DNA of 64,000 nucleotides, from assembly GCA_964016885.1 (NCBI GenBank), contig OZ024744.1, positions 57,660,001 through 57,724,000 on the forward strand, in the 5' to 3' direction. The notes beneath the pieces were generated by a model. The model did no database searches. It saw only the letters and a list, made by a program, of their open reading frames with translations, and had not been told where the DNA came from. Below, piece by piece: positions 18,732 through 64,000 of the stretch. Both the position numbers and the translations under genes were made by a program. Within the stretch, counting starts at the first letter, position 1, and each line of letters begins with the position of its first letter. Origin of the DNA: Eledone cirrhosa (lineage: Eukaryota).

Positions 18732-19994
18732 AAACCCCTATACTTAGCTTTTGTTGACTTGGAGAAAGCCTTTGACAGAGTCCCCCGCTCCATTATCTGG
18801 TGGGCTCTTAGAAAACTAGGTGTAGATGAATGGCTTATGAGAGCTATACAAGCCATGTATAAAGAAACAGTCAGCAAGGTTAGAATTAACAATGAATATA
18901 GTGAAGAATTTAGCGTATAAGTTGGTGTTCATCAGGGCACTGTCCTTAGCCCCCTCCTATTTATTATTGCCCTTCAGGCTATAACAGAGAAGTTCAAGAC
19001 CGGCTGCCCATGGGAACTTCTATATCAGTTGATTGAACACTCATAGCTGAATTGATGGCTGAACTAAAGAAGAAATTCCAAACATGGCCTAGAATCAAAA
19101 GGCCTTAAAATTAACTTGTCTAAGACTAAAGTTCTAGTATGTAGGAAGGAAAATAGGGCACAGTTCCCCTCAGGGAAATGGCCATGCTTAGTGTGTAGGA
19201 AAGGAGTAGGCAGAAATTCCATTTTATGTCCCAAATGTAAAGTATGGGTGCATAAAAGATGTAGTGGGATCACAGGAAAGCTATCTAAGAACATAGATTT
19301 TAAATGTGGCCGGTGCTCAGGTGCAATAAGTAGCAAGTTCCCACAGGATACTAGCTCCTTCTATTGCCCAGATGCTTCTATAGAAATAGTGGACACCTTC
19401 CGTTACCTGGGTGACAAAATCAGCAATGGTGGAGGGTGCTCTGAAAGTACAGTAGCTAGAGTCAGAACGGGATGGAAAAAGTTCAGAGAGCTTATACCTA
19501 TATTGGTCACTAAAGGTTTCTCTCTAAAAATGAAAGGCAGGCTGTATGATGCCTGCATACGAACAGCAGTGTTACATGGCAGTGAGACTTGGGCATTGTG
19601 TGCAGAGGATCTGCGCAGACTGGAGAGGAACGAAGCATGCATGCTCCGTTGGATGTGTAATAGTAATATACATGAACGGCAAAGCATAAATGAACTAAGT
19701 GAGAAATTAGGAATAAGAGGGATCAGATGCTGTTTACTCGAGAGAAGACTACGTTAGTATGGTCACGTGATGCGCATGAAAGACGACAGCTGTATAAAAA
19801 AGTGCAGGGCGATCAAAATTGATGGAAGTTACGGAGTAGGCAGACCCAGAAAAACCTGGGACGACTTGATAAATTCTGACCTTACACACTTACACCTCTC
19901 CAAGACAATGTCACTGGACCGAGATCTTTGGCGCTATGCAGTAATACAGAAGACCCGCCTTGCTTATGTACATAGTGAAACCTGCAGTCAGTAG
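18732..19994 (+). mobile_element. 5'-truncated RTE-clade LINE with a PHD-like Cys/His finger inside the RT; contains stops and frameshifts
   Basis: FVDLEKAFDRVPR, GVHQGTVLSPLLF, CLVC...CPKCKVWVHKRC...CGRC, FRYLG, LHGSETW and GRPRKTW. Confidence 0.9.
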
Positions 19995-22096: not shown

Positions 22097-23135
22097 GCGA
22101 TGGGGCCCACCCACAGCCCCGGCGGACAGAATGGAGAAGGCGTTTCCCCGGAGGACGGCAAGAGAGACGCGCTGGAAAAGCCACTCCAACTCGCGGGGCT
22201 CACCTGCGGCTGGCCAGCTCAGCGCCTATGGTGGTGAGTAAGGAGGTAGCCCTGGGGCCGAGGACACCAGAAGTCTCCACTGCCAGGGGTACGACCGCAA
22301 ACCTGTCGGAGAGCGACTGGTATTTGAGGAGTTTGGCCCCCTCAGCCCGACGTGCAGCAGAACCTGCGTCAGTCGCAGACTGCACCAGGTTGCGGCTGCA
22401 GAAAGTGTCGGTGCAAGTGGCATCCCAGACGAGGGGTTTGCCACCGCGGAACAGGAAGATGGTCATGTCATCTGGCCTTTTGCCGTCCCCTCGATTCAGC
22501 CCCACCGACTCGAGCTTGGGAAGGGAAGCCTGCAGCATCCAAGCCATACTTAATGACCTCGTTGAGGGCAGCATGGCGTGGAATACGGCCGGCACTGTGG
22601 CGACAGGAAAGCGGGTGGAGGCCGAAAGAGTCCACGGTGGAACCGCAGTGACATTGGTATGGCTGGCAGATCCGGAGGCCGAGCCTCAGGGAAACACCGA
22701 TTCGCAGGCTATGGTTGTCTAGCTGCGTGCCAGTGGAGAAGGAGGGCAGGGCATGGAGCTAGGCACCACTGTGGGGTTTGGAGGCCGCACAAAAACAAGC
22801 AAGGAAGTGCTGGTCGAACTGGCGCGTGAGCCTGTCTGAGGTCAGGCTGCACTGGATGGCATCCCAAGTGCGTTGGAGGGGGGGGGGGGCACTTGACGTC
22901 AGCAGAGGGAAAAGGAGGAGGGATGTCTACTGGGCTAAGTCCCAGCCGGTCCCACGTCTCACAGGCGGCCTCACGTTCTCTGAACACAGAGGGTTCTGTT
23001 GTGTTTTGAAGAACCCTGCTGACGAGGACGCGGCACAAGATTTCCGACGAAAGATACACCGGCAAAGCTAGTGAGATCGGGGACCGGAGGCCAAGGCTGC
23101 CATACCTGACCGGTAAAGTGGCCTATTGCCACCCT
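22097..23135 (-). mobile_element. CRE-like non-LTR retrotransposon 3' fragment (CCHC knuckle plus restriction-like endonuclease), GC-rich
   Basis: [72 protein letters not shown] and FQRVSLAVLRGNA. Confidence 0.88.
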
Positions 23136-26457: not shown

Positions 26458-29400
26458 CCCCCACCTTTGATGACTTTGAGATGCACGCATATCTCTGTCA
26501 ACCCGGAGGTGGGGTGGGGTTGTCATTCTGCTGCAAAAACATCTGGGTCTCGCAACATAGACGGTACATTTAGACCCGGAGGGTCGACTAGTGGTTCTGG
26601 ACCTTGGCAGTGGTGAAGGTGGAGCGTTTAGGTTGGTAGCCGTCTACGGCCCTTTCGGGTCAATGCGGCTGGACTTCTTCCATCGTCTGGAGACTTTTCT
26701 AGGGACGTCCCGCACCTTGCTATTAGTGGAAAACTGGAATGGTATCCTAGATGCACGTTGGGGCTATGTAGGGGCCTGTCCCGATAGAGAGGGGTGTAAT
26801 AGCCTCAAAGGGTTAATCGGTCTATTTGACCTGGCCGATAGATATCGACTAGATTTTCCGACTGCGCCAACCTGGACTTGGGCAAACTGCAGCGGATCAT
26901 CTAAGTCGTACCTAGATAGGTTCTTAGTTAGAAATAAGGATAAGGACTTTTTAAGTTGTCCAAAAATGCACATGGTTGGCTATTCAGACCACAAGTTAGT
27001 GACCTGCATGGTCAACCTTGAAAGAACGCATAGACAGGGACCCGGTTACTGGAAGCTCAACTTGTCCTTACCGGCAAGTAAGGCTTACAGGGACTGGATT
27101 AGCACTTTAGTTAAGGAACGGTTGACGGGCGCCATCATCAACAGCAGGTGGTGGGGATCTCTCAAAAGAGAGATTAGAGTAGTCTCTATAGAATTTAGTA
27201 AGGAGTTAGCCTCAAATAGAAATAGGAAGGAAAGGGAGTTGGTAGATAGTGTAGAAGAGGCAATTAGAAGTGGCGACGGGGCCAGAGTGCTAGCGTCGAG
27301 AACGGCCCTGGGCCAGTTCTTCGACGCGAAACACGAAGGCTGCATCGTCCGAAGCAAAATACGTGCTCTGGGAAACGACGGGACCAAAGCTGTTAGCTGG
27401 GCCCGTGTGACAAAAGAGGGAGTAGATCCACTATCCAGTCTTTGCGAGACCAGTATGGACAAGTGATCCTTGAACCTAAGCAGATGTGCGAGGCTTTTCA
27501 AAAGCACTTTGCCAGATTGTTCGGAAAGGGCGTGAATCCGGTTGGGGAAGTGGACTTCGGTCCATACCTCGACGGCCTGCCGTGTCTCTCGGACAGGGAG
27601 GCGAAGTCCTGCGAGGAGCCGATTTCAGCCGCTGAGATAGAGGACGTGCTGAGCCAATGCGGCAAACGCAAATCCCCGGGTCTCGATGGTTTCCGTACGA
27701 ACTATATCTAGCTATGCCGGACTTGTTCCCCGATCTCCTCGAGGCGGTCTACTGCAACTGGCAACAGAACGGGAGAATTCCCTGTGCTGTGACCAAGGGC
27801 GTAGTCACGCTAGTGAGGAAGGACGAGAACAAGGGGGACGATATAAATAATTTCAGGCCCATAACTCTGCTAAATACAGAGTTACAGATTTTGGCCAAGG
27901 TGCTAGCAAAGAGGTTGGCGCTTGTCGTGGGCACCCTGGTGGGAGATGCACAGACATGTGCTATCCCATCCAGGACCATCCACGACAACCTCCACCTCAT
28001 GCGATACATCATAGAGAGGGCTGGGAACGAACCCGGCTTTGGTGGGGCCCTGATCAACTTGGATCAATCTAAGGCGTTCGATAGGGTCGACCATGGTTAC
28101 CTGGATGCGGTGCTAGCGGCGGCAGGCTTCGGACCCATTTTCAGGGGCTGGATCAATGCCATGCTCAGCAGCCGCATCTGCTCTAGGGTCAAGGTGAACG
28201 GCTACCTCTCGGAGCCGTTCAAAGTCACGCGGTCCATCCGACAAGGGTCCCCTGTCTCCTCCCTTCTGTATGTAATGACTCTAGAGCCACTGCTGCGGAA
28301 GTTGGAGTTGTTGCAGGGCATCCCATTGGAACCGGAATTGCGGAAAGCGGTGTTGGCCTACGCCGATGACGTAACAGTAATGGTGTTGACGGCCTCGGAA
28401 ATCAGGGCGATCGGCACCTTACTGGAGGAGTACGAAAGGTTTACAGGGGCTAAGCTGAACCAGGACAAGTCGATCGGTCTGCAACTCGGCACGTGGAGGG
28501 GCAGATCGATGCCCTCCGATGGTGGCGTCGGGCACTGGACGGAGGGCCCGGTGAAGTTGCTCGGGGTCTGGTTCGGACCAGACCTCCAAGTGGAGAAGAA
28601 CTGGGGGGAGGTAACGAACAGGGTGTTTGCACTGACCCAGAAGTGGGCCGAGTGCAAACTGTCCCTGAAAGGTCGGGTGGAGGTGGCGAACACTTATATA
28701 GCGTCCGTCATCTACTACCGCCTGACCGTTGTGCCTTGTCCAAGGGAAACGCTTGCCAAAATGGAGCGTGCACTCTTCCAATTCCTTTGGAAGAAGTGGG
28801 CTCCTATGGTGAGGAGATCCATCTGCTGTCAACACCCTTCGAAAGGTGGGGATGCCGTGGCTAATGATACGTAAACACGCATTAAGGCTACGGCGCCTCC
28901 AGGTATTCCTCACCGGTCAACCGGTGTGGGCCCCGTTTGTGAGGCGAGCCTTTCCCAGACTCGTCTCGCTCACCGAGCTGCAATCCTGGGTCAAGCAAAG
29001 ACCAAGAAAACTGGGCGCCTGGCACACCGAGTGTGCCCAGTGTGCCCAGGCGCTCACGGCTCTCTGGCAGGCGGACCCGGGGTCAGTGGAGATTCCACCT
29101 CGTCATTCTATAGAGGGCTGGTGGTTAGCAGGTGCGACGACGCCCTCGGAGAAGCCCTAGGCATGGAGGAAGACGAACTGGCCAACCTGTTCGGTAGGGC
29201 ATTCAGCCCGGGACCCATGGATAACTTCCAGAGGTCCCTGGCCTGGCAGTGCTACCGAGGGGCTCTGCCCATTCGAGAAAGGCTCTACAGATACGGGGGC
29301 CCGGGTAGGGACCCCTCGAAAAAGATCTGTCCCAGATGCGTGTGTGACGAGGAAACCGTTGCATATGCATTGGTACACTGCTCGGGCATTGCCGATCTGT

Positions 29401-30027
29401 GGGGCTATGTCGAACAACTGCTGTCAAGGGTGGGACCGATCTGGTTGACCACCGAGTCTATTGTAACGATCAAGCCGCCTCCCCTCTTCAAAAACGAAGG
29501 AGATGCGGTGTTTCTGTGTGTAATAGCCATGGCGAAAGAGGTTGTATGGTTGACGCGTCTGAAAGGACTGAGGTCAGACACCTTTCTCTCTGGCCAACAA
29601 CTGGTCCGTTTCTTCCGATATCATTTCGGAAGAAGGATCAGGATGGAGAGAGAGGTGCTGCACCCCTGCTGTTTTTATGAAAGATGGGTGAAAGTGGCGA
29701 GAATGGCCCGTGTGGATGGGCCTTCACTCTACATCATACTATAGATGAGGAAGATGAAAGATCAAGGGTGCACCCCCTCTCTGTGCTCCTGAGGAGAAGG
29801 GTTGCACACTTATTTTCGGGGGCGTGTGCGACCCCCCAAGGCGCCTCCTCCCTATTGAGGATTTTGTTATTAAATTTATTTTTGTTATATTTTATTTTAT
29901 TTTTATATCTTGTTATTGCCTCCTCCTTATTGAGGATGCCTTTTTATGTAAACTCTGGCCCCCCCCACCCCCCCACCCATTGTACTTGTCCCACTTTTGA
30001 TGCCCTGGTGGAAAATAAAAAGAAAGT
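26458..30027 (+). mobile_element. Tx1-type (L1 group) LINE, 5'-truncated: ORF2 APE + RT + zinc-binding region, frameshifted; 18-bp TSD
   Basis: YLDRFLV, SDHKLV, GPGYWKLN, KSPGLDG, FRPITLLN, LDQSKAFDRVDH, YADD and CPRC..EET..ALVHC. TSD tatcttactgtatactgg at 26440-26457 and 30028-30045. Confidence 0.95.
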
Positions 30028-38310: not shown

Positions 38311-38630
38311 ATGGTGCCATGATAAAATGCTCCGACTACACACTGTAAAGTTGTAGTGCTGGTGCCATGATATAATGCACCCAGTAAGCTCTGTAAAGTG
38401 GTAGTGCTGATGCTCCAATAAAATGCATCCAGTTCATACTGTGAAGTAGTAGTGTTGTACCATGAACAAGTGAATTCAGTGCAGTTTTGTAAAGTGGTAG
38501 TGCTAGTATCATGATAAAATGCACCTAGTACAGTTTTGTAAAATAATAATATTGATGCTATGATAAAATTAACCCAACACATTCTCTGTAAAGTGGTTGT
38601 GCTGGTGCCACAATAAAATGCACCCAAGGA
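38310..38630 (+). repeat. ~49-bp tandem repeat, same family as 405-730
   Basis: ggtgccatgataaaatgc..ca..ctgtaaagtggtagtgct repeated about 6-7 times. Confidence 0.8.
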
Positions 38631-38900: not shown

Positions 38901-39809
38901 TCGTCCATAGTAAGATTGAAATTTAAAGTACAAAATAGTAGAATAAATACTGCAAGGCATCCCCTCCAATGCTCTAACATTTCCACTAATCCACTGTCTG
39001 GGACTCATACTTTATTTTATTGATTTTGGAAAGAGGAAAAGCAAAGTTGACTTTGGCAACATTGGTAATGATTTAACACTAGTGTGGTTTGTCGGAGTTT
39101 GGGCTCTCATGTTGTCTTGGTTATGGCTGTTTAGCACCAGAACTTGTATGTAATTGGTTTATCTAAGCGATCATATTGGATATGTAGTTTTTATGGTTCT
39201 ATTGGTTTTGCATTCTAATTGTTGGTGTTGTTTAGCCCCAGGCGAGTCCTTACCCTGCACACCTATGACCATCCTGCCTTTTTCCTTTGTGCAAGAAACT
39301 CAGGATCACATTACCCAAACCATCTTTTTCTAAGGTGGCAGGGTGTGATTTGTGGGAGATTTGGCTGCTATTTCTAGCAATTCAAGCAACCAAGCAAAGA
39401 CTGTCTTGTTTGACTTGGGGTTAGTAGTTGTTGATATGTCTTAGTTATCACTGTGTAGTGCCAGGCCTGATTATGTAGCTACATTTAGCAACGAGATCAA
39501 TATCTAGATAATCTTTTAGCTTTAGCATTTTATTTCCTTTTGTCTAGTGTGTGGTGAATGTAAATAGGTCTGAGAGTGTGTGTGTCGGCATGTGTATGTG
39601 AGTGAGTATGTCTGTATATGTGTGTATGCAGTCTGGTGTGATGTTTTGACCAATGTTTACATCTTGTCTTTGATCTTTATGGAAGGGAGATTGATGACAG
39701 CTCTAGTAACATTGGCATTGTATTCTTTTATTCTTTTACTGGTTTCAGTCATCTGACTGTGGCCATAATGGGGCAACACTGGGAAGGGATTTTAGTTAAT
39801 CATATCAGT

Positions 39810-40165
39810 CTACCCTGTAAGGTGGTCATGCTGGTGACAAGACAAAAAGTACCATGTCCACCCCGTAAGGTGGTCATACTGGTGTCAATACAAAAAGTAC
39901 CCTGTCCACCCTGTAAGGTGGTCATGATGGTAACATGACAAAAATAATCCAGTCAACCTAGTTAGATGGTCGTTTTGGTGCCACAATAAAAAGCACCCAG
40001 GCCACACTATAATGTAGTTAGTGTTAGGAAGGGCACCCAGCCGTAGAAACCAAGTAAAAATACAGATCAGTATGAGCATGATTTGGTCTCTAAACCTGAC
40101 TTGTCTCATAACCTGACAACCTGTCTAACTCAAGTGTGTGGAAAATGGATGTTAAACAATGGTGA
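39810..40165 (+). repeat. ~49-bp module array leading into a SINE/RTE-like tail
   Basis: ctgtaaggtggtcat..tggt..ca..aaaaagtacc x4, then gtgttaggaagggcacccagccgtagaaacc...ggatgttaaac. Confidence 0.7.
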
Positions 40166-46560: not shown

Positions 46561-48690
46561 TTTAGGAGAAATGGTCTATAGATGTAAGGTATCCATTAGC
46601 AACACAGCTACATATTACATTGGGGATGCTTCTAACACTTTTAAAAAAGATATTTTATGAACATATGCACTCATTTAGGAATGCAAACAAGGAACACAGT
46701 ACATCACTAGCAGAATTCATTTACTGATTAAAAGACTTGAATGTGAGGTATAATATAATTTGGTTATATAATTCAGTTAATCCATATCAGGCAAATTGGT
46801 GGGAATGCAATCTCTGCTCTGTTAAAGTATTGGAAATATATTCATGTAGTAACATTTTGCTTAACTTGAGACAAGAGATCATCATCTCTTGCATGTATAA
46901 AATTCTACAGATGTTTCTCTTGGATGGATTGTGATCCAGCTTAGCAAACTTTACCAAATAAGTCAAGTAGCAAAGTCATTTTAGTTTATTTATATCAGTG
47001 TAACACTATGCAAATAACTAAGAATAAAGAGATAGATTATCACTCTATAATGTTGAGCTGTTGTAGTGGATCTGAACATTAAGCAAAAGAAGAGAAATGC
47101 AGGCACAGCCATTGGATTAATTTGACTAACTTATACAGTGAAATAGCTTTTTCAACTTTTCAAATTATCACTTGTAATGTCTCTCTGTGTGTTATACGGT
47201 ATCTCATATTTTGACAATTTTCCATACCATCTTTTTACACCCCTATCATATTCTAATACCAAATTCTCCCTTGAATTTAGTTCTTTATTTAAATTTCTTT
47301 ACATTATCTTATAAGATGTAATCTTTATTGTATATGAGTTCCAGCTTCCAGCAGCCATACTCTTGTGATTCCAGGATTCCTTGTCTTTTTAGATATATTT
47401 TATTTTTATCATTTTTATTTCTTTGATCAATACACTTAGCTAAACTAAAATGACCAGTTAGACCAGTGATTCTCAACCAGTGTGCCGCGAAATTTTGAAC
47501 AGCACTAAGAAAATGCGAAAACCACGTGATCCCAATTGAGTATTCCCAGTGGTGTAACATGTTGCACCACATAGCTTTGTTCATTTAGGGATGAGTGAAA
47601 TGTTTCCAAATGTTGCAAGGCTAAAAATTCTATATCTTTTATTGTTTCGTTCGTCATATTGATCATATGAATGGATATTGGTCAATAATTGTCTTAAAGT
47701 GGGACCCCCACCCCACCAAAGAAATAAAAGATTTATTATATAATGCATCTTTTGTCCACTTTTATGGTAGAATCTATCTCTAAAACTGAAACAAATGATA
47801 TATTTCTTTTTCATCTAGTCCTAATTTTTGCTGGGATATGACCAAAAATGGTTGAAAAATAGCGTAATTTTCAGAGTTCTTTTGAGAAAATCCAAATAAG
47901 CTATGAAGATGATTTTTACATTTTTAGAATCAGAAAACCAGTCATTGTATGGTAACAGAAGCCTTTGTTTGATATTTTGGAAAAAAAATGTTGTCTTCAT
48001 TAATGTGCTGGACAGTAAAAAAAATGAAAAGAATCATTTAAAAAAAATAAAAGTGACTATAACATTTTTTCAAGTCAGAATAAAAAAAAAAGGTTTCTGT
48101 CACAATGAAGCTACTATTATAAGAAAGGTCTCCTCAAAATTTCAAGCGAATCTATCGAGTAGATTTTCTAGAAAGAGCTTTGAAATTTTGAGAAGTACCC
48201 ATTTTGAGAAAATTGCTTGTAAAGATTAGAAACACAAATGTCAGCTTCTACCTCTGTTTCGGAATAATCTATGGATGATTCCGATGATTTAGCTCAGAAT
48301 TCTCTGGTTCATGCTACTAAATGAGTCCATGTTAGCTTTCCTTCACATATATTTTGTCTTGCTTCATCTCTATATGGCATAATTTCCTAATTTTCTGGTT
48401 GATTATCCCATCGGAAGAGTGAGTTTGGCCGCGATGCTTACATTGTGATGGCAGATTTACGATGTGTTGTCAGTGCTCAAACATTGACTATTTTTGTGCA
48501 TAATACATTGAAAATTGATGATTTCCAGAAATGGTCTCATAAAACATCAATTTTACGTAGGAAGACATATTTTTATTATTTTGCTGTTTGTACACGAAAG
48601 AGAAGGCCTTGTGGGACTGAAAGACACTGTCATCTCAATATAGACAATCTTACCTAAAACTGTCATATTGATATCTCATGACCCTTCACA

Positions 48691-50398
48691 ATGGATAAAT
48701 ATTTGAAAAGGAAAGATATTATTGAGGAGTCCAAGTCCAGAGGCGAACAACCATCAACCTTGTGAAAATTATTTGAAATTTGGATTTTATTGGTCTGGTG
48801 ACGTTGACAAACCAAGTCCATCATGCGTAGTGTGCAGTGAAACAATGTCAAATGAATCCATGGACCCAAGTAAGGTAGAAAGACATTTTAATTCAAAACA
48901 TTCATCTCTGAAAGATAAAAAGCTTGATTACTTTCAAAGACTGTTAGAGCATAAATCAAAACAGCGAAGTTATTTTGAAAAAATAATGACCGTGTCTGGA
49001 CGAGCCCAACTAACGTCAATTCAGGTGACTGAAATAATAGCATTAAAATCTAAATCCCACACGCTTGCTGAGTCAGTCATCCTCCCAGCTTGCAAAAAGA
49101 TGGTAAAAAGGCTGAGAAGGAATTGAACAATATCCCACTTTCAAATGATACAATACGTAGAAGAATCCTAGATATATCGAAAAATATTGAAGACAATGTT
49201 TAGAAATTGCTTAATAATTCTAATTTTGCTTTAACTGTGGATGAATCCAATGGCATCAGTAATAAAAGTCAATTGCTTGCATTTGTACGTTTTATTGACG
49301 AGAATAAAATAATGAATCAATTTTTGTGCTGTAAAGAAATGCCCACAACTACAAGAGGTCAACATATTTTTGATTTGATAACAGGCTACCCCAAAGAAAT
49401 GAATTTGTCTTGTAAGTCCTGTGTTGGCATTTGCACCGATGGAGCCTCATGTCTAACAGGCTGTATTAAAGGATTTGTATCCTTCCTAGAAAAAGAAAAT
49501 CCAAATCTCATTCGTACTCGTTGCTTTCTACATAGAGAAGTTCTTATTTCAAAAATATCGCAGGAAGATTTAAAGGTTGTGGTACATCAAGTTGTTGGAA
49601 TGGTCAATTATATAAAAAGTATGCCATTGAAGTCACGATTATTGGAACAACTGTGCATGTTAAGTTATTAATACACACTGAGGTTCGCTGGCTGTCGAAA
49701 GGCAAAATACTAAATCGTGTTCACGAACTGCACAAGGAATTACTATCATTTTTTCTCCAGGAAAAGCAGGAGAAATTCTGTGAATACCTTAGTTGCGAAT
49801 TTTAGATGTCTAAAATGGAATACCTAACAGTAATATTTAGTGAACTAAATAAAACAAACAGTAGTATGCAAGGTAAAAACGAAAATGAGCAATCACTGGC
49901 AATCTTGATATGTTCCCTTTATTGCGTTCTACCTGCATTAGAGAAATGATCTCTATTGTGGTAACTCATCTGACAGTCCTGGACGAAAGCATCAACAATT
50001 ACTTCCCGTCATTAAAGACAGAAAAGTATGATTGGATTAGAGATCCTTTCATAAATCATTCTTCCACCATTGAACTTGAGTAACAGGAAGAAGAAGAATT
50101 GGCTGCCCTTTCTAGTGACCGAGGGTTAAAATTAAAACATTCTACTCTGTCCATTAATTCATTTTGGATTTCAATTCAAGAGGAGTATCCCATATTATGT
50201 AAAAGAGCTTTAGCAATTTTATTACAATGTTCAACTTCTTATATATTTGAATTAGGTTTCTCAACATTAAACAACATCAAAAACAAGAAGCATGAGAGAT
50301 TACGTACAACGGAAGAAGAAATGAGTGTGTGTCTGTCTCATATTCGACCAAACATTAAGGAAATTACGTATAAAAGCCAGGCACAAATTTCTCACTAA
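48691..50398 (+). pseudogene. Disrupted hAT transposase (ZBED5/ZBED8/SCAND3-like)
   Basis: MDKYLKRK start, BED finger (YLKFGF..CVVC..RHFNSKH), VDES, CTDGA, CFLHRE, EVRWLSKG, STSYIFELGFS and QAQISH*; multiple stops and frameshifts. Confidence 0.93.
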
Positions 50399-50493
50399 AG
50401 AAGTCAGCTATTTGACTGATGAAAGTCGAAACACTGAAATAAAGTAAGTTTATAACTGTACGGTTGTCTTTATTTAGTTTGAGTCATTCTATG

Positions 50494-53400
50494 TGTCTAT
50501 GACTTGTCTATGTCTACGGTTGTATGTCATCTATGACGTGTCTGTGTCTACAGTTGTATACCGTCTATAACTAGTCTGTGTCCACAGTTGTATACCGTCT
50601 ATGACTAGTCAGTGTCTACAGTTGTTTACCGTCTACGACTAGTCTGTCTACAGTTGTATGTCATCTATGACAAAGTCTGTGTCTACTGTTGTATACTGTC
50701 TATGACTAGTATGCGTCTACAGTTGTATACCGTCTATGACTTGTCTGTGTCTACAGTTATATACCGTCTTTGACTAGTCAGTGTCTACAGTTGTATACGG
50801 TCTATGTCTTATCTGTGTCTACTGTTGTATACCATCTATGACTTGTCTGTGTCTAAAGTTGTTGCCGTCTATGATTTGTATGCAGTTGTATACCGTCTAT
50901 AACTAGTCTGTATCTACAGTTGTATACCGTCATTTGACTAGAGTATATCTACAGATGTATACCGTCTATGAATAGTGTGTCTACAGTTGTATACCGTCTA
51001 TGACTAGACTGCGTCTACAGTTGTATATCGTATATGACTAGTCTGTGTCTACAGTTGCATACCGTCTATGACTTGTTTATGTCTACAGTTGTATGCCGTC
51101 TATGATTAGACTATGTCTCCAGTTGTATGCCATCTATGACTTGTCTGTGTCTACTGTTGTTTACCGTCTATGACTAGTCTTGGTCTACAGATGTATGCCG
51201 TCTATGACTTGTCTGTGTCTACAGCTGTATACCGTCTATGACTTGTCTATGTCTACAGTTATATACCGTCTATAATTAGTCTGTGTCTACAGTTGTATGC
51301 CGTTTATGAATTGGCTAAAGTTGTATACCATCTATGACTTGTCTGTATCTACGGTTGTATGCCTTCTATGAGTGTCTGTGTCTACAGTTGTATACCGCCT
51401 ATGACTAGTCTGCCTCTATAGTTGTATACCGTCTATGACCAGTCTGTGTCTATAGTTGTATGTCATCTATGACTAGTCGGTGTCTACAGTTGTATAACGT
51501 CTATGACTAGTCTGTGTCTACAGTTATATGTCATCTATGAATAGTCTGTCTCTACAGTTGTATACCGTCTATGACTAGTCTGTGTTTACGGTTGTATACC
51601 GTCTATGACTGGTCTGTGTCTACAGTTGTATACCGTCTATGACTAGTCTGTGTCTACTGTAGTATACCGTCTATAACTGGACTGTGTCTACAGTTGTATA
51701 CCATCTACGACTTGTCTGTGACTACAGTTGTATGCCATTTATGACTAGTTTGTGTCTACAGTTGTATACCGTCTATGACTTGTCTGTGTCTACGGTTGTA
51801 TAACATCTATGACTTGTCTGTGTCTACAGTTGTATGCCGTCTATGACTTGTCTACAGTTGTATACCATCTATGACTTGTCTGTGTCTACAGTTGTATAAC
51901 GTATATGACTAGTCTATATCTACAGATGTATACCCTCTATGACTTGTCTGTGTCTACAGTTGTATACCATCTACGACTTGTCTGTGTCTATAGATATATA
52001 CCATCTACGAGTTCTCTGTGTCTACAGTTGTATACCCTGTATGACTTGGCTGTGTCTACTGTTGTATAGCGTCTATAATTTGTCTGTGTCTTAGGTTGTA
52101 TTGTGTTTATGACTTGTCTGAGTTTACCGTTTTATACCGTCTATGACTACTCTGTGTCTACAGTTGTATGCCGTCTATGACTAGTCTATGTCTACAAATT
52201 GTATACCGTCTATGAGTAGTCAGTGTCTACAGTTGTATACCATCTATGACTAGTCTTGCACTACAGATGTATACCGTCTGTGACTTGTCTGTGTCTGCAG
52301 TTGTATACCGTCTATGACTAGTCTGTGTCTACAGTTGTATACCGTCTATAACCTTTTGTGTCTACTGTTGTATACCGCCTATGAATTGGCTGTGTCAAGG
52401 GTTGTAAACCGTTTCTGACTTGACTATGTCTACGGTTGTATGCCGTCTATGACTTGTCTGTGTCTACATTTAAATAACGTCTATGACTAGTCTGTGTCTA
52501 CAGTTGTATACCGTCTGTGACTTGTTTGTGGCTACAGTTGAATACCGTCTAAGACTTGTCTGTGTCTATAGTTGTATACCATCTATGCCTAGTCTGCCTC
52601 TACTGTTTTATACCGTCCATGATATGTCTGTGTCTACGGTTGAATGCCATCTATGACGTGTCTGTGTCTACAGTTGTATGCCGTCTATGACTTGTGTGTG
52701 TCTACGATAGTATGCCGTCTATAATTTGTCTATGTCTACAATTGTATACCATCTATGACTAGTCGGTGGCTACAGATGTATAACGTCTATAACATGTCTG
52801 TGTCTACAGTTGTATACCGTCTATGACTAGTCTGTTTCTACAGTTGTATACCATCTTTGATTAGTCGGTGTCACAGTTGTATACCGTCTATGACTTGTCT
52901 GTGTCTACAGTTGTATACCGTCTATGACTAGTCTGTGTCTACGGTTGTATACCATCTATGACTAGTCGGTGTCAACGTTGTATACCGTCTATGACTTGTC
53001 TGTGTCTACAGTTGTATACCGTCTATGACTTGTCTGTGTCTACGGTAGAATGCCGTCTATGATTTGTCTATGTATACAGTTGAATGCAATTTTTGAGTTG
53101 TCTGTGTCGACACTTGTATACCATCTACGACTAGTTTGTGACTACAGTTGTATGCAATCTATGACTAGTCTGTGTCTACAGTTGTATACCGTCTATGAGT
53201 AGTCTGTGTCTACGGTTGTATACCGTGTATGACTTGTCTGTGACTACAGTTGTATACCATCTAAGACATGTCTCTGTCTATAGATGTATACCATCTATGA
53301 GTAGTCTGTGTCTACTGTTGTATACCCTGTATGACTTGTCTGTGTCTAATGTTGTATACCGTCTATGATTTGTCTGTGGCTTAGGTTGTATGCCGTCTTT

Positions 53401-56400
53401 CACTTGTCTGAGTCTACCATTTTATACCCACTATGACTAGTCTCTCTCTACAGTTGTATGCCGTCTACGACTAGTCTATCTCTACAATTGTATACCATCT
53501 ATGACTATTCTGACTCTACAGTTGTATGCCGTCTATGACGTGTCTGTGTCTACAGTTGTATATCATATATGACTACTACAGTTGTATACCGTCTGTGACT
53601 TGTCTGTGTCTACAGGTGTATACCATCGATAACTAGTCTGCGTCTACAGTTGTATACCGTCTACACCTTGTTTGTGTCTACTGTCGTATACCGTCTATGA
53701 ATTATCTGTGTCAAGGGTTGTATACCGTTTATGACTTGTCTATGTCTACGGATGTATCCCGTTTATAACTACTCTGTGTCTACAGATGTATACCGTCTAT
53801 GACTTCTCTGTGTCTAAGGTTGTATGCCGTCTATGACTTGTCTGTGTTTACTGTTGTATACCGTCCGTTATTAGTTTGTGTCTACCGTTAAATACCGTCT
53901 ATGACTTGTCTATGTCTACAGTTGTATACCATCTATTACTAGTCTGTTTTTGCAGTTGTGTGCCGTCTATGAGTACTCTCTGTCTACAGATGTATACCGT
54001 CTATGACTAGTCTGTGTCTACTTTGTATACCGTCTATAACTTGTCTGTGTCTCCAGTTGTATACCGTCTATGACTTGTCTGTGTCTAAGGTTTTATGCCG
54101 TCTATGATTTGTCTGTGTCTACCGTTTTATACCGTCTATGACTAGTCTATGTCTACAGTTGTATACCGTTTATGACTGTTCTGTCTTTACAGTTGTATAC
54201 CGTCTATGACTACTCTGTGTTTACTGTTGTATACCGTCTATGGCTTGTCCGTGTGTACAGTTGTATACAATCTATGACAAGTCTGTGTCTACAGTCTTAT
54301 GCCGTCTATGACTTGTCTGTGTCTACAGTTGTATACCGTCTAAGACTTGTCTGCGTCTACGGTTCTATGCCGTCTATGACTTGTCTGTGTCTACTGTTGT
54401 ATGCCGTCTATCAGTTGTATGTGTCTATAGTTGTATGTCATATATGACTATTCAGTCTCTACAGTTGTATAACGTCTATGACTAGCCTGTGTCTACAGTT
54501 GTATACCGTCTATGACTTGTCTGTGTCTACAGTTGTATACCGTCTATGACTAGTCTGCGTCTAGGGTTGTATGCCATCTATAACTTGTCTGTTTCTACAG
54601 TTGTATGTCGTCTATGACTAGTCTGTGTCTACCGTCTATGACTAATCTGTGTCTACAGTTGTATACCGTCTATGACTATTCTGTCTCTACAGCTATATGC
54701 CGTCTACGGCGTGTCTGTGTTTACTGTTGTATACCGTCTATGACTAGTCTGTGTCTACAGTTGTATACCGTCTATGACTAGTCTGTATCTACAGTTGTAT
54801 CTCATCTATGACTAGTCTGTGTCTACAGTTGTATAGCGTCTATAACGTGTCTGTGTCTAAAGTTGTATACCATCTAAGACTTGTCTTTGACTATAGATCT
54901 ATACCATCTATGAGTAGTCTGTGTCTACAGTTGTATACCCTGTATGACTTGGCTGTGTCTACTGTTGTATACCGTCTATGATTTGTCTGTCTTAGGTTGT
55001 ATACCGTCTATGACTTCTCTGAGTCTACCTTTTTATACCGTCTATGACTAGTCTGTGTCTACAGTTGTATGCCGTCTATAACTAGTCTATGACTACAATT
55101 GTATACCATCTATGACTATTCTGACTCTACAATTGTATGCCGTCTGTGATGTGTTTGTGTTACGATGGTATGCCGTCTATGACTTGTCTACGTGTACAGT
55201 TGTATACCATCTATGACAAGTCTGTATCTACAGTTGTATACCATCTATGACTAGTCTGTGTCTACAGATGTATACCGTCTGTGACTTGTCTGTGTCTACA
55301 GGTGTATACCATCTATGACTTGTCTGTGTCTACAGTTGTATAGAGTCTATAACTTGTTTGTGTCTACGGTTAAATACCGTCTATGACTATTCTCAACAGT
55401 TGTATGCCGTCTATGACTAGTGTGTGTCTACAGTTATATACCGTCTATGACTTGTCTATGTCTCCAGTTGTATACCATCTATGACTAGTATGTATCTACA
55501 GTAATATACCGTCGATGACTTGTACATGTCTACAGTTCTATACCATCTATGACTAGTCTGTTTTTACAGTTGTATGCCGTCTATGACTACTCTGTGTCTA
55601 CAGATGTATACCGTCCATGAATTGTCTGTGTCTAAGTTTGTATGCCGTCTATGACTTGTCTGTGTCTACCGTTTTATACCGTCTATGACTAGTCTGTGTC
55701 TACAGTTGTATGCCGTCTATGACTAGTCTATCTCTACAGTTGTATACCGTTTATGACTATAAATGTCTCTACAGTTGTATGCCGTCTATGACGTGTCTGT
55801 GTTGACTGTTGTATACCGTCTATGACTAGTCCGTGTGTACAGTTGTATACCATCTATGACTAGTCTGTGTCTACAGTTGTATACCATCTATGAATTGTCT
55901 GTGTCTACAGTTGTAGACCGTCTAAGACTTGTCTGTGTCTATAGTTGTATACTATCTATGACTAGTCTGTGTCTACTGTTTTATACCGTCCATGATATGT
56001 CTGTGTCTACAGTTGTATGTCGTCTATAACTTGTCTGTGTCTACGGTATTATGCCGTCTATGACTTGTCTATGTCTACAATTGTATACCATCTATCACTA
56101 GTCGGTGTCTACAGTTGTATACGGTCTATGACTAGTCTTTGTCTACGTTGTATACCGACAATGACTTGTGTCTACAGTTGTATACCGTCTATGACTTGTC
56201 TGTGTCTACGGTTGTATACACTCTATGACTTGTCTGTGTCTACAGTTGTATACCATCTATAACCTGTTTGTGTCTACTGTTGTAAACCGTCTATGAATTG
56301 TCTGTGTCAAGGTTTGTATACCGTTTATGACTTGACTATGTCTACGGATGTATGCTGTCTGTGAATTGTCTGTGTCTACGGTTGTATACCGCCTATGATA

Positions 56401-59400
56401 GTCTGTCTACAGTTGTACACCGTCTATGACTAGTTTGTGTCTACTGTTGTATACCGACTATGACTAGTCTATGTCTAAAGTTGCATGTCGTCTATGACTA
56501 GTCTGTTTCTACAGTTGTATACTGTCTATGACTGGTCCGTGTCTACAGATTTATACCCTCTATTACTTGTCTATGACTAGTCAGTGTCTACAGTTGTATG
56601 CCGTCTATGTCTGGTCTGTGTCTACAGTTGTATGCCATCTATGACTTGTCTGTGTCTACAGTTGTATATCGACTAAGTCTAATCTGTGCCTACAGTTGTA
56701 TACCGTCTAAAACGTGTCTGTGTCTACAGTTATATACCAACTATAACTAGTCTGTGTTTCCGGTTGAATGCCATATATGACTTGTCTGTGTCTACAGTTG
56801 TAGGCTATCTATGACTAGTGTGTGTCTAGTGTTGTACGCCGTCTTTGACTAGTCTGTGTCTACTGTTGTATACCGTCTATGACTAGTCTGTGATTAGAGT
56901 TGTAAGTCTTCTATGACTAATCTATGTCTACGCCTGTATACCGTCTATGACTTGTCATGTCTGCAGTTGCATACCGTCAATGACATGTCTGTGTCTACTG
57001 TTGTGTACCATCTATGACTAGTCTGTGTCTACGGTTGTATACCGACTATGACTTGTCTGTGTCTACAGTTGTATGCCGTCTATTTCTTGTCTGTTTCTAC
57101 AGTTGTATGCCGTCTATGACTGGTCTCTGTCTACCGTTGTATACCGTCTATGACTTGTCTGTGTCTAAGATTGTATACCGTCTATACTTATCTGTGTCTA
57201 CAGTTGTATACTGCCTCTGACTTGTCTGTGGCTACAGTTGTATGCCGTCTACGACTAGTCTGTGTTTACGGTTGTATGCCATCTACGACTTGCCTATATC
57301 TCCAGATGTATACGGTTTATGACTAGTCTGTGTCTAGGGTTGTATGTCAACTATGACTTGTCTCTGTCTCCAGTTGTATACCGTCTATGACTTGTCTCTG
57401 TGTACAGTTGTATACTGTCTATCACTTCTCTGTGTCTATAGTTGTATGCCGTCTATGACTAGTCTGTGTCTACGGTTTTATGCCATCTACGACTTGACTG
57501 TATCTACAGTTGTATACCGTCTATGCCTAGTCTGTCTCTACAGTTCTATACCGTCTATAACATGACTGTGTCCACATGTGTATGCCGTCTATGACTTGTC
57601 TGTGTCTACAGTTGTATGCCGTCTATGACTAGTCCGTGTTTAGGATTGTATGCCATCTATGACTAGTGTGTGTTTAGGGTTGTATGCCGTCTATGATAAG
57701 TTTGTGTCTACAGTTATATACCGTCTATGACTTATCTGTCTCTACAGATGTATACCGTCTATGACTAGTCTGGGTCTACGGTTGTATGCCATCTACGGCT
57801 AGTCTGAGTCTACAGATGTATATGGTCTATGACTCGTGTGTGTCTAGGGTTGTATGCCGTCTATGACTTGTTTTTTTCTACAGCTGTATGCCATCTATAA
57901 CTAGTCTGTGTCTACAGTTTTATACCGTCTATGACTTGCCTGTCTCTACAGTTGTATACCGTCTATGCCTAGTCTGTCTCTACAGTTGTATACCGTCTAT
58001 GCCTAGTCTGTATCTACAGTTGTATGCCGTCTATGATAGTCTGTGTCTACAGTTGTATACCGTCTATGACTAGTTTGTGTCTACAGTTATATACAGTGTA
58101 TAACATGTCTATGTCTACAGATGTATACCGTCTGTGACTAGTCTGAGTCTACAGTTGTATGTTGTCTATAACTAGTCTGTGTCTACTTTTGTATACCATA
58201 TATGACTTGTCTGTGTCTACGGTTGTATGACTTCTACGACTACTCTGTGTCGACAGTTGTATACCATCTATGATTTGACTATGACTACAGTTGAATACCG
58301 TCTATGACTAGTCTGTATCTACAGTTGTATACCGTCTATGACATAACTGTGACTACAGGTGTATGCCGTCTATGACTAATGTGTGTCTACGGTTGTAATT
58401 CGTCTATGACTAGTGTGCCTACAACTATCTGCCGTCTATGACTTGTTTTTTTCTACAGCTGTATGTCATCTATGACTAGTCTGTGTCTACAGTTTTATGC
58501 CGTCTGTGACTTGCCTGTCTCTACAGTTGTATACCGTCTATGCCTAGTCTGTCTCTACAGTTGTATACCGTCTATGCCTAGTCTGTATCTACAGTTGTAT
58601 GCCGTCTATGACTTGTCTGTGTCTACGGTTGTATACCATCTATGATAGTCTGTGTCTACAGTTGTATACCGTCTATGACTAGTTTGTGTCTACAGTTATA
58701 TACAGTGTATAACTTGTCTATGTCTACAGATGTATACCGTCTATGACTAGTCTGTGTCTACAGTTGTATGTTGTCTATAAGTAGTCTATGTCTAATTTTG
58801 TATACCGTCTATGACTTGTCTGTGTCTACAGTTATATGCCGTCTATGACTAGTCTGTGACTACATTTTTATACCGTCTATGACTTGCCTGTCTCTACAGT
58901 TGTATACCGTCTATGACTAGTTTGTGTCTACAGTTGTATACCGTTTATGACTTGTCTATGTCTACAGATGTATACCGTCTATGAAAGTCTGTATCTACAG
59001 TTGTGTGCCGTCTATGACTTCTTTGTATCTACAGTTGTATAACATCTATGACCAGTCTGTGCCTACAGTTGTATACCGTCTATGACTAGTTTGTGTCTAC
59101 AGTTGTATTCCGTCTATCACTACTCTGTGTCTACAGTTTTAGGCCATCTATGACTTGTCTCTGTCTACCGTTGTATACCGTCTATGACTTGTCTGTGTCT
59201 AAGATTGTATACCGTCTATACTTATCTGTGTCTACAGTTGTATACTGCCTCTGACTTGTCTGTGGCTACAGTTGTATGCCGTCTATGGCTAGTCTGTGTT
59301 TACGGTTGTATGCCATCTACGACTTGTCTATATCTCCAGATGTATACGGTTTATGACTAGTCTGTGTCTAGGGTTGTATGTCAACTATGACTTGTCTCTG

Positions 59401-62400
59401 TCTCCAGTTGTATACCGTCTATGACTTGTCTCTGTGTACAGTTGTATACCGTCTATCACTTCTTTGTGTCTATAGTTGTATGCCGTCTATGACATGTCTG
59501 TGTCTACAGTTGTATACTGTCTATGACCTGTCTGTGTCTACAATTGTATGCCGCCTATGACTAGTCTGTGTCTGCGGTTTTATGCCATCTACGACTTGAC
59601 TGTATCTACAGTTGTATACCGTCTATGCCTAGTCTGTCTCTACAGTTATATACCGTCTATAACATGACTGTGTCCACATGTGTATGCCGTCTATGACTTG
59701 TCTGTGTCTACAGTTGTATGCCGTCTATGACTAGTCCGTGTCTAGGATTGTATGCCATCTATGACTAGTGTGTGTTTAGGGTTGTATGCCGTCTATGATA
59801 AGTTTGTGTCTACAGTTGTATACCGTCTACGACTTATCTGTCTCTACAGATGTATACCGTCTATGACTAGTCTGGGTCTACGGTTGTATGCCATCTACAA
59901 CTAGTCTGAGTCTACAGATGTATATGGTCTATGACTCGTGTGTGTCTAGGGTTGTATGCCGTCTATGACTTGTTTTTTTCTACAGCTGTATGCCATCTAT
60001 AACTAGTCTGTGTCTACAGTTTTATACCGTCTATGACTTGCCTGTCTCTACAGTTGTATACCGTCTATGCCTAGTCTGTCTCTACAGTTGTATACCGTCT
60101 ATGCTTAGTCTGTATCTACAGTTGTATGCCGTCTATGACTTGTCTGTGTCTATGGTTTATACCGTCTATGGTAGTCTGTGTCTACAGTTGTATACCGTCT
60201 ATGACTAGTTTGTGTCTACAGTTATATACAGTGTATAACATGTCTATGTCTACAGATGTATACCGTCTGTGACTAGTCTGAGTCTACAGTTGTATGTTGT
60301 CTATAACTAGTCTGTGTCTACTTTTGTATACCGTATATGACTTGTCTGTGTCTACGGTTGTATGACTTCTACGACTAGTCTGTGTCGACAGTTGTATACC
60401 ATCTATGATTTGACTGTGACTACAGTTGAATACCGTCTATGACTAGTCTGTATCTACAGTTGTATACCGTCTATGACATAACTGTGTCTACAGGTGTATG
60501 CCGTCTATGACTAATGTGTGTCTACGGTTGTAATTCGTCTATGACTAGTGTGCCTACAACTATCTGCCGTCTATGACTTGTTTTTTTCTAAAGCTGTATG
60601 CCATCTATGACTAGTCTGTGTCTACAATTTTATACCGTCTATGACTTGCCTGTCTCTACAGTTGTATACCGTCTATGCCTAGTCTGTCTCTACAGTTGTA
60701 TACCGTCTATGCCTAGTCTGTCTCTACAGTTTTATACCGTCTATGCCTAGTCTGTCTCTACAGTTGTATACCGTCTATGCCTAGTCTGTATCTACAGTTG
60801 TATGCCGTCTATGACTTGTCTGTGTCTACGGTTGTATACCATCTATGATAGTCTGTGTCTACAGTTGTATACTGTCTATGACTAGTTTGTGTCTACAGTT
60901 GTATACCATCTATAACTAGTTTGTGTCTACAGTTATATACAGTGTATAACTTGTCTATGTCTACAGATGTATACCGTCTGTGACTAGTCTGAGTCTACAG
61001 TTGTATGTTGTCTATAACTAGTCTGTGTCTACTTTTGTATACCGTATATGACTAGTCTGTGTCTACAGTTTTATGCCATCTATGACTAGTCTGTGTCGAC
61101 AGTTGTATACCATCTATGATTTGACTGTGACTACAGTTGTATACCGTCTATGACATAACTGTGTCTACAGGTGTATGCCGTCTATGACCAATGTGTGTCT
61201 ACGGTTATAATTCGTCTATGACTAGTGTGCCTACAACTGTATGCCGTCTATTACTAGTCTGTGTCTACAGTTGTATGCCGACTATGACTAGTCTATGTCT
61301 ACACGTGTATACCGTCTATGACTAATCTGTATCTACAGTTTTATGCTGTCTATGTCTAGTCTATATCTACACTTGTATACCGTCTATGACTTGTCTGTGT
61401 CTACAATTGTATACCGTCTATGACTAGTCTGTGTTTACAATTGTATCCTACCTACGACTAGTCTGTGTCTACATTTTTATACCGTCTATGACTATTATAT
61501 ATCTACAGTTGTATACCGTCTAGGTCATGTCTGTGTCTACAGATGTATGCCGTCTGTGACTAGTCTGTGTCTACAGTTGTATGCCGTCTGTGACTACTCT
61601 GTGTCTAGGGTTGTATGCCCTCTATGACTTGTCTGTGTCTACAGTTGTATGCCGTCTATGACTAGTATGTGTCTACAGTTGTATACCGTCTTTGACTAGT
61701 CTGTGTCTACAGTTGTATGCCGTCTATGACTCGTCTGTGTCTACAGTTGTATGCCATGTACGACTTCTCGGTGTCTACCGTTGTATACCGTCTATGACTT
61801 GTCTGTATCTTACGGTTGTATACCATCTATGACTAGTCTGTGTCTACAGTTGTAGGCCATCTATGACTTGTCTGTGTCTACAGTTGTATACCGTCTATGA
61901 CTAGTCTGTGTCTATAGTTGTATACCATCTATGACTAGTCTGTGTCTACGGTTGTATGCAATCTACGACTAGTCTGTGTCTACAGATATATATGGTCTAT
62001 GACGTGTCTGTGTCTACAGTTGTATACCGTCTTTGATTAGTCTTTGTCTACAGTTGTATGCCATGTATGACTAGTCTGTGTCTACAGTTGTATGCCGTCT
62101 ATGACTAGTCTTTGTCTATAGTTGTATGCCGTCTATGACTAGTGTGTGTCTACAATCGTATGCCGTCTATGACTAGTCTGTGTCTACAGTTGTATACCGT
62201 CTATGACTAGTCTATGTCTATAGTTGTATACCGTCTATGACTAGTCTATGTCTACAGTTGTATACCGTCTATGATATGTCTCTGTCTACAGTTGTATACC
62301 GTCTATGACTTGTCTGTGTCTACACTTGTATGCCGTCTATGACTAGTCTGTGGCTACCGTTGTATACCATCTACGACTAGTGTGTGTCTACAGTTGTATA

Positions 62401-63083
62401 TGGTCTATGATAGTCTATGTCTACAGATTTATACCGTCTATGACTAGTCTGTGTCTACGGTTGTATAACGTCTATGACTTGTCTGTGTCTACAGTTGTAT
62501 GCCATCTCTGACTTGTGTGGATCTAGCGTTGTATACCGTCTATGACTTGTCTGTATCTACGGTTGTCTACCATCTATGACTAGTGTGTGTCTACAGTTGT
62601 AGGCCGTCTATGAATTGTCTGTGTCTACAGTTGTATGCCGTCTGTGACTACAGTTGTATGTCGTCTATGACTTGTCTTTGTCTACAGTTTTATATCGTCT
62701 ATGACTTGTCTCTGTCTACAGTTTTAGGCCATCTATGACTTGTTTGTGTCTACAGTTGTAAACCGTGTATGACTTGTCTGTATCTACTGTTGTATGCCGT
62801 CTATGACTGGTCTGTGACTACAGTTGTATGTCAGTTGTATGTCAGTTGTATGTCGTCTATGACTTGTCTGTGTCTACAGTTGTATACTGTCAATGACTTG
62901 TCTGTGTCTATGGTTGCATGCCATCTATGACTTGTCTGTGTCTACAGTTGTATAACATCTCTGACTTGTCTGTGTCTACAGTTGTATACCGTCTAGGACT
63001 TGTCTATGACTAGTCTGTGTCTACGGTTGTATGCCATCTATGACTTGTCTGTGTCTAGGGTTGTATGCCTTTTATGACTTGTC
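50494..63083. repeat. Satellite array: roughly 370 copies of 34-bp GTCTATGACT(A/T)GTCTGTGTCTACAGTTGTAT(A/G)CC
   Basis: 34-bp periodicity throughout; copy number is estimated from length/34. Confidence 0.97.
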
Positions 63084-63133
63084 ATGTTTTATTTTGTAAA
63101 ATTCAAATATTTTTCACATATATTTAGCCAGGT

Positions 63134-63177
63134 CCCCCCCTTGGAAGTAGGGAAAATCGGACGTAAAATGATAATAT
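63134..63177 (+). mobile_element. 44-bp retroposed 3' tail with a 16-bp TSD, nested in the hAT right end
   Basis: atatatttagccaggt at 63118-63133 and 63178-63193; the insert gggaaaatcggacgtaaaatga matches the SINE tail at ~18417-18440. Confidence 0.8.
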
Positions 63178-64000
63178 ATATATTTAGCCAGGTGTGCCGC
63201 TATATTTTCATGTGTTCCAAGGTGTGCCGTTGGCATAAAAGGGTGAGTACCACTGAGTTAGACAGATGAATATAGAATTTTGCCCCCAACATACTATTTT
63301 CTCCACTTCAAGTATCTTAGTGATTCCCATATAACTTTTGAGATTATGGATTTGGTCTGAAGACAATTACAGGAGGAAGACTGAGTTAAGATGTGGAGAA
63401 GCATACATCTCTTCATTAAAACATATTTAGTTAACACCCACCAGTGTATTAGTAGGGTCTAAAACTAGCTTCTGATCTGTCCCTGTTGTTATTTTCATAT
63501 ATTTTATATATCATCATCTTCATCATCACCCTCATCATCATCATCATCATCACCTTCACCATCATTTAACATTTGTTTTTTCCCTCCAGGTCACCAACAA
63601 TACTGAAGTGGAGCTATTGACCTCACAAATGGGATTAGTGCCTGCATCTCACAGATTGCCCAGACTGGCCTGTGTTCCATATCCCACTTGTGCATTTTTA
63701 TATTTTATATACGTATTTTATTCATGTTTTTTTTTGTCCTTTATTTCTTTTTTTTATCATTATATTGCTCTCTTTATTATCTCTTTTTATTATTTTTAAT
63801 TTCTGTTTCAATCTGTGTCATTTCTCAGTATTGTATATCTACTAGGGATTGTCTATGATCAGGTTGCTATGACCATAATCATTTGTAAGATCTTTCCTGA
63901 AGAAGTGAAAAAGCACAGAGTCATGTAGTACTTGTGTCATAATCATGATTATGTAATCCTGCACAATATTTTGTGGAACAAAATCACAGAAACAAGTGTA

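Follow-up and report, generated by a model that had tools for sequence, protein, structure and literature searches.

We analyzed a 64,000-nucleotide stretch of Eledone cirrhosa DNA (C28:57,660,001-57,724,000 of a 3.0-Gb assembly; hereafter, the window) that contains a 15,792-bp transposon at positions 47464-63255, most of which is a tandem array of a 34-bp unit. Comparison of this element with its sister copies indicates that in-place expansion of a unit native to the transposon, after or around its insertion, is the most likely source of the array, probably aided by copying between neighboring copies.

A preliminary description of the window had assigned the element to the Buster-type hAT transposons, with both terminal inverted repeats (TIRs) and a perfect 8-bp target-site duplication (TSD) of the form nnnTAnnn enclosing a transposase pseudogene. 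Each of these features was confirmed (Table 1). The TSD copies are identical at 8/8 positions and are the only two occurrences of AGTTAGAC on the + strand of the window, and the TIRs are alike at 12 of 15 bases. Aligned to the family's 612-amino-acid (aa) reading, the transposase remnant falls into five frame pieces (89 to 96%), of which the C-terminal one matches PF05699, the dimerization domain of hAT transposases, with 23 bits (cut-off 21.4); one 155-aa piece, compared with solved structures, gave no relevant match. Compared with its sisters, the window copy is missing ~22 bp from its left subterminal repeat, plus ~210 bp further inward. The array spans 12,589 bp, or 80% of the element, and begins 96 bp past the stop, in agreement with the ~80% and ~100 bp given earlier. 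Its copy number is 364.9 by Tandem Repeats Finder (TRF) and 373 by wrap-around alignment (counting the final, partial one; 330 are of full length). Some 370 repeats of a 34-bp stretch from its own tail account for the 15.8-kb size of the window copy. Its units differ from the family's single unit by 8.2% at non-hotspot sites, making this the most diverged of 33 arrays, and a 204-bp exact repeat at a 2,102-bp offset (a lag of 62 to 63 units) marks a 2.1-kb block that was duplicated long ago.

Table 1. Anatomy of the window copy, with positions counted from the start of the window
Feature	Position	Strand	Remarks
Left target-site duplication AGTTAGAC	47456..47463	.	
Left terminal inverted repeat, 15 bp	47464..47478	+	
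Element 5' non-coding region	47479..48690	+	Aligned to the family majority, covered 38-1015 and 1228-2742
Broken hAT/Buster transposase gene, frameshifts and stops	48691..50398	+	
AATAAA, putative poly(A) signal	50438..50443	+	51 bp upstream of the first unit; present in the family majority
34-bp tandem array, 373 units	50495..63083	+	
Right subterminal region, two GTGTGCCG motifs	63084..63240	+	~45-bp insertion with short duplication near 63131-63180
Right terminal inverted repeat	63241..63255	-	
Right target-site duplication AGTTAGAC	63256..63263	.	

The transposon family and its Buster-type features

We searched the genome with the left end, the right end, the 3' part of the coding region, and the array, scoring about 40 candidates for each, and found sisters of the window copy on many chromosomes. 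A majority sequence built from eleven long copies is 3,571 bp long, with one open 612-aa frame and 15-bp TIRs alike at 14 positions; this TIR length falls within the 5 to 27 bp typical of hAT elements. Elements of this kind had been expected to measure 2 to 3 kb, which proved too short: six of the seven unswollen full-length copies measure 3.46 to 3.69 kb, and the remaining one 3.08 kb. At 3.1 to 3.7 kb, single-unit copies lie within the size range of hAT elements (<4 kb), which the window copy exceeds through its array alone. We traced 82 elements from end to end, a count that includes a few segmental duplicates twice. In 75 of the 82, the TSD copies are alike at no fewer than 6 of 8 positions, and 74 of these 75 have TA at TSD positions 4 and 5 (nnnTAnnn). 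Two pairs of single-unit elements (C2:161,055,493/161,136,433 and C1:290,105,938/290,112,125) have the same TSD and structure in common and are segmental duplications.

The majority reading contains the motifs VDEST, TDGA, HCFLH, and CELGFS, which presumably include the DDE residues of hAT transposases. Its closest named proteins are ZBED5-like, FAM200A-like, and SCAND3-like, all of which we take to be Buster derived. The majority transposase shares 92% identity with a protein of Octopus bimaculoides across 372 aa. Identity to an isopod and a shrimp protein (P0002 and P0005) is 80% and 78%, respectively, which is high for a mollusc against arthropods and possibly reflects horizontal transfer, although the isopod entry bears a flag for unverified contamination. 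The Buster family is characterized, in the available portions of PMC3517528 and PMC12637253, by an 8-bp nnnTAnnn TSD, TIRs of 14 to 16 bp, and one open reading frame (ORF) of ~600 to 680 aa. The present family resembles it in TSD pattern, TIR length, size of the single ORF, and its nearest proteins (ZBED5-like and FAM200A-like). These sequence features support a hAT family with the Buster TSD, that is, a Buster-type family.

The 34-bp unit in sister copies and related organisms

In unswollen sisters, the 34-bp unit is present exactly once, and its first 14 bases recur directly after it. The bounding sequences, GTCTATGACTAGTC and GTCTATGACTTGCC, are thus direct repeats, exact over 10 bp and alike at 12 of 14 positions, and the unit sits ~100 bp past the stop and ~50 bp past the conserved AATAAA. 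We carried out a census of the junctions on either side of the unit from genome-wide matches with three or fewer mismatches. The 64 left and 88 right junctions formed 56 pairs, leaving 8 left and 32 right unpaired; many of the loci came from array or end searches, so the census is not an unbiased sample. The pairs form a graded series: two enclose no unit, one encloses half a unit, 20 enclose one unit, nine enclose 2 to 9, 16 enclose 12 to 124, seven enclose 199 to 1,187, and one encloses ~15,720, giving 33 arrays of at least two units. In both zero-unit copies, the unit was lost between the bounding repeats. We read 20 further loci, comprising element ends, single units, and arrays, all at the same site. 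Every array lies at the same site, on the same strand, and in register within its element. Tabulating co-occurrence and array length per element, as the preliminary description had proposed, thus gave a range from none to ~15,720 units at one position, and its suggestion that the array arose from the 3' subterminal region gains from the single unit found at that position in sisters. Sequence comparison supports the element's own 3' region as the origin of the array.

In the right subterminal region, another small unit has become tandem as well, with ~7 copies of a 45-bp period and ~4 copies of a 30-bp period (L125:534-885 and L121:4956-5125). A 45-bp go-back joint at this small unit was seen in contig data.

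We counted matches to a 23-base motif of the unit across the genome and found 9,243 on the + strand and 1,800 on the - strand (11,043 in all). The number expected from the traced elements is 9,308 + and 1,674 - (10,982), or ~99% of the count, where the expectation combines the arrays read with extrapolation of four partly read ones and leaves two - strand arrays open-ended. In the assembly, the satellite therefore lies almost wholly inside elements, and a single element, described below, holds ~70% of all motif matches. These data refute, as far as tested, the idea that a separate, widespread satellite inserted secondarily into the transposon, a reading to which we assign practically no chance. 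The earlier account had named sisters without the monomer, together with a satellite widespread on its own, as the outcome that would overturn it; instead, sisters carry the monomer, each array is in register at one site and on one strand, the unit is single copy in related organisms, and no evidence for a secondary insertion was found.

For the related organisms, we used contigs from three species, one run each. These contigs cover the whole element and bridge a single unit, and the depth of the unit equals that of its flanks in all three, with one two-unit contig in one organism. In a run from the same species as the window, possibly from the same sample as the assembly, summed unit depth is ~700,000, compared with 60 to 570 in the coding-side flank (>1,000-fold). 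This indicates that, among the four species sampled, amplification of the unit is restricted to this lineage.

The largest arrays keep intact element ends. At C28:105,030,657-105,565,526, a short deletion derivative (~400 bp without its array) has swollen to 534,870 bp, and CTATAGGT stands on either side of it as a perfect 8-bp TSD. Sixteen sampled blocks, covering 26% of this array, are all filled with units on one strand, and the private variant C20G occurs at frequencies of 0.11 to 0.26 in every block. Likewise, the elements at C2:11,999,981-11,878,111 (121,871 bp) and C1:437,134,365-437,175,126 (40,762 bp) have kept their ends and TSDs (8/8). Motif spacing at C1:22,671,172-22,680,091 recurs at a 6,655-bp offset, a multi-kilobase block duplication within a 24-kb array.

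Long arrays could in principle be assembly artifacts, produced by stutter or by mis-joining two separate elements. Sequence was read for only 26% of the 535-kb array and 45% of the 122-kb one, some arrays contain multi-kilobase exact repeats, and matching TSDs are missing from 4 of 21 arrays with at least 20 units, compared with 3 of 61 other elements (p = 0.07). Set against this are the matching 8-bp TSDs at both ends, the absence of any 128-bp exact word common to the 10-kb blocks of the 535-kb array (unit filled and on one strand), the lack of any exact internal repeat longer than 204 bp in the window array, and the very high unit depth in the unassembled own-species run. We regard an artifact as a very remote prospect.

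Array growth and probable exchange between copies

In their flanks, 21 single-unit copies diverge from the majority sequence by 3.2% and 29 array copies by 3.6% (p = 0.56), which points to one burst of the family with no younger array branch. Copies lie ~3% from the majority sequence, each with its own TSD. Arrays are found not only in full-length copies but also in five or more deletion types, and single-unit members occur in full-length copies and in three deletion types. Of 33 arrays, 28 carry a non-hotspot variant at a frequency of at least 10%, and 13 of 24 such common variants are confined to a single array. Unit divergence rises with array size (rho = 0.43 to 0.47), and three of the seven arrays tested contain exact internal block repeats of at least 1.8 kb (1.8 to 3+ kb), compared with a longest repeat of 204 bp in the window array. 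In many arrays the variant A11T, which combines the two bounding repeats as a hybrid, is common.

We also considered hairpin-driven growth and found no support for it as what makes the arrays expand, because the size of the 33 arrays is unrelated to palindrome retention or folding energy (rho ~0). When tandem copies were compared with those of shuffled units, four seed units folded better (p = 0.013), as did two (p = 0.043), but one did not; a hairpin effect at the two-to-four-unit step is possible, without predicting size.

Neighboring copies have flank and monomer variants in common. In a tree of 21 long copies, the well-supported pairs are physical neighbors, and segmental duplication was rejected as the cause of this likeness, given that flank similarity is absent in 8/8 comparisons (two with ~200 bp on one side only). 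Five pairs among the 33 arrays lie <3 Mb apart, and they rank 1, 3, 5, 6, and 8 of 528 in similarity of variant spectra; their mean correlation is 0.59, compared with -0.03 in permutations (p = 5e-5), in a test that set aside CpG transitions as well as positions 11 and 32. Single or array state agrees in 9/9 neighbor pairs (p = 0.005), three of which come from one trio, so not all are independent. In the 314 bp around the unit, all four flank-sharing pairs that are significant after Bonferroni correction (of 2,198) are neighbors <10 Mb apart. The window copy is linked to the 41-kb C1 copy by five shared flank variants, but at p = 5.6e-5 this falls short of the Bonferroni threshold for 2,198 pairs and is a hint only. 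Two neighboring arrays at C5:31.77 and 31.87 Mb both contain C34T, as well as units that have lost about half their length (slips of a 17-bp sub-repeat).

The copy at C2:46.50 Mb combines the left part of one deletion type with the junction, variants, and T19C-bearing array of another, that of its neighbor 380 kb away, at 46.12 Mb. Two deletion types are clearly joined in this chimeric copy, and transposition plus deletion do not suffice to produce it without a template switch. Given the chimera and the flank and monomer variants that neighbors have in common, small arrays likely also passed between copies, by conversion or by local hops. This bears on the alternative of wholly independent births, in which each array arose from its own single unit without exchange and shared variants reflect recurrent mutation. 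Private variants and the occurrence of arrays in many structural types agree with such births, and CpG changes and A11T can recur; yet the neighbor correlation was obtained after CpG transitions had been excluded together with positions 11 and 32, and the chimeric copy requires exchange, so we consider independent births highly unlikely.

A further alternative is the spread of arrays as cargo, in which one master copy or a few gained the array, transposition carried arrays of near-present size, and the copies with one unit either collapsed or belong to an older branch. It would account for the array state and monomer variants common to related neighbors with different TSDs, for the weak clustering of array copies on the tree, and for a two-change monomer found on different chromosomes. 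Nevertheless, one unit is the commonest state (20/56) and the one that contigs of the three other organisms bridge, array copies match single-unit copies in age, and sizes reach 535 kb. In addition, the arrays of related neighbors differ two- to four-fold in length and lack colinearity in their first and last units. In cells, the activity of a Buster element fell by ~90% between 1.6 and 8.5 kb of cargo (PMC12637253), which argues against the movement of 16- to 535-kb elements as such, though size on its own does not prove the point. Cargo spread on this scale appears unlikely, and it likely holds only for arrays of few units. The preliminary description had offered growth in situ or spread as cargo; growth in place is most likely for the large arrays, but the either/or was too narrow, given that small arrays likely also moved between copies.

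Several observations weigh against growth in place aided by copying between neighbors. Eight of 23 pairs <10 Mb apart have no flank variant in common, and most neighbor pairs fit a local hop with a few-unit cargo as well as they fit conversion. Because deletion junctions carry microhomology, a deletion type may arise twice and is no proof of descent. The tree is star-like and compatible with a single origin of the array state; four array copies group together with an ultrafast bootstrap (UFBoot) value of 87. The monomer with both G24A and G32A occurs in many arrays on different chromosomes and in 0/30 single units, so that exchange or common ancestry is needed. Simple aging does not explain why the window array lies 8.2% from the unit while its flanks lie 3.6% from the majority; this array appears to have stopped turning over. 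Contig depth, on which the comparison with relatives draws, is no measure of copy number. For the window copy itself, neither an empty allele nor a spanning read was seen. The empty-site comparison proposed earlier likewise bore nothing out, as the contigs contained no empty site and the unique flank was covered only in the own-species run, with no contig bridging it.

On balance, we favor growth in place with copying between neighbors. After the family had spread in its burst, mis-pairing at the bounding repeats would have given the observed series of none, half, one, two, three, and more units. Slippage or repair synthesis would make the first extra units, plausibly during the gap repair that follows excision in hAT biology (repair from paralogous copies has been proposed in PMC9659126), and the A11T hybrid is the product expected of a slip between the bounding 10- to 14-bp repeats. 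Neighboring copies would then exchange sequence across the array region, so that some arrays were likely inherited from a neighbor rather than born anew. Finally, small arrays may enlarge by block duplication, whether by unequal exchange or by repair synthesis, at rates that differ between loci and up to 535 kb. A more speculative and rather doubtful extension is that arrays are "contagious," born once, transferred by ectopic repair to sisters with a single unit, and then subject to local runaway to half a megabase. Dispersed copies of a dead transposon would, on the same tentative footing, serve as homologous landing pads, with TIRs and TSD still marking each founder.

The surroundings of the element offer little sign of a host gene, as 90 open frames within ~10 kb on each side include no host-gene family, although short exons would escape such a survey. 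A PHD-finger match lies ~3 kb past the element (L157:2306-2584, - strand) and is possibly a retroelement ORF1 remnant. Elsewhere in the window, open frames at 26561-29744, 19068-19757, and 22200-23122 are presumably remnants of long interspersed nuclear element (LINE) endonuclease and reverse transcriptase. A young 104-bp tandem repeat (~10 copies, 97% matches) occupies 15963-17000, and 48-bp tandem pieces at 560-727, 38312-38626, and 39806-40012 resemble what we take to be the head of an octopus short interspersed nuclear element (SINE).

Significance and known systems

The origin of a large satellite block from a single motif is usually inferred after its traces have vanished. Here, the ancestral unit, the age of the founder (from flank divergence), both boundaries (from the TSD), and the unamplified state in relatives can be read at dozens of loci over four orders of magnitude in size, so that birth rate, mode of growth, and exchange between loci become directly measurable. 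The window copy is a middling, old member; what makes it of value is the family as a whole. If the contagious reading is true and other families behave alike, much of the satellite DNA of the genome would have a datable transposon founder, giving per-locus growth rates from a known seed. The data also raise the question of why this species alone amplified the unit.

We found no hAT- or Buster-borne satellite of this kind and no octopus case in the literature, in a search that most subscription papers lay outside of and that does not establish absence from print; the accessible part of PMC13282606 gave no match for "satellite." The route of amplification is already known from the miDNA4 and Tetris elements, and what is new is the coding parent with its native seed, the size range, and the intact ends. 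The following comparisons draw on the available portions of the sources cited. miDNA4, from Xenopus tropicalis (Scalvenzi and Pollet; described in PMC12628747 and PMC9659126), is a Tc1/mariner MITE (miniature inverted-repeat transposable element) said to have captured a repeat. As here, its unit lies in a TIR element, either as one monomer or as arrays of variable length, and the monomer stands between short direct repeats to which changes in copy number are attributed. Unlike miDNA4, the present family is hAT/Buster, its coding parent is at hand, and the unit is native to the 3' end. Moreover, long miDNA4 arrays are expected to lose their ends, whereas the three longest arrays here, up to 535 kb, keep TIRs and TSD. 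In Tetris/TIR-220 of Drosophila virilis (PMC4079207), repeats already in the element amplify within it, as here, but Tetris is a foldback element whose repeats lie in the TIRs, with at most 66 copies in that assembly, and its amplification is thought to be disruptive. The Xmix MITE/Xstir system of Xenopus (PMC12628747) is similar in that a lineage-restricted array derives from internal sequence of a DNA transposon, under a model that involves two nearby elements. It differs in being a nonautonomous MITE of another group and in its stem-loop excision model, which is not shown here.

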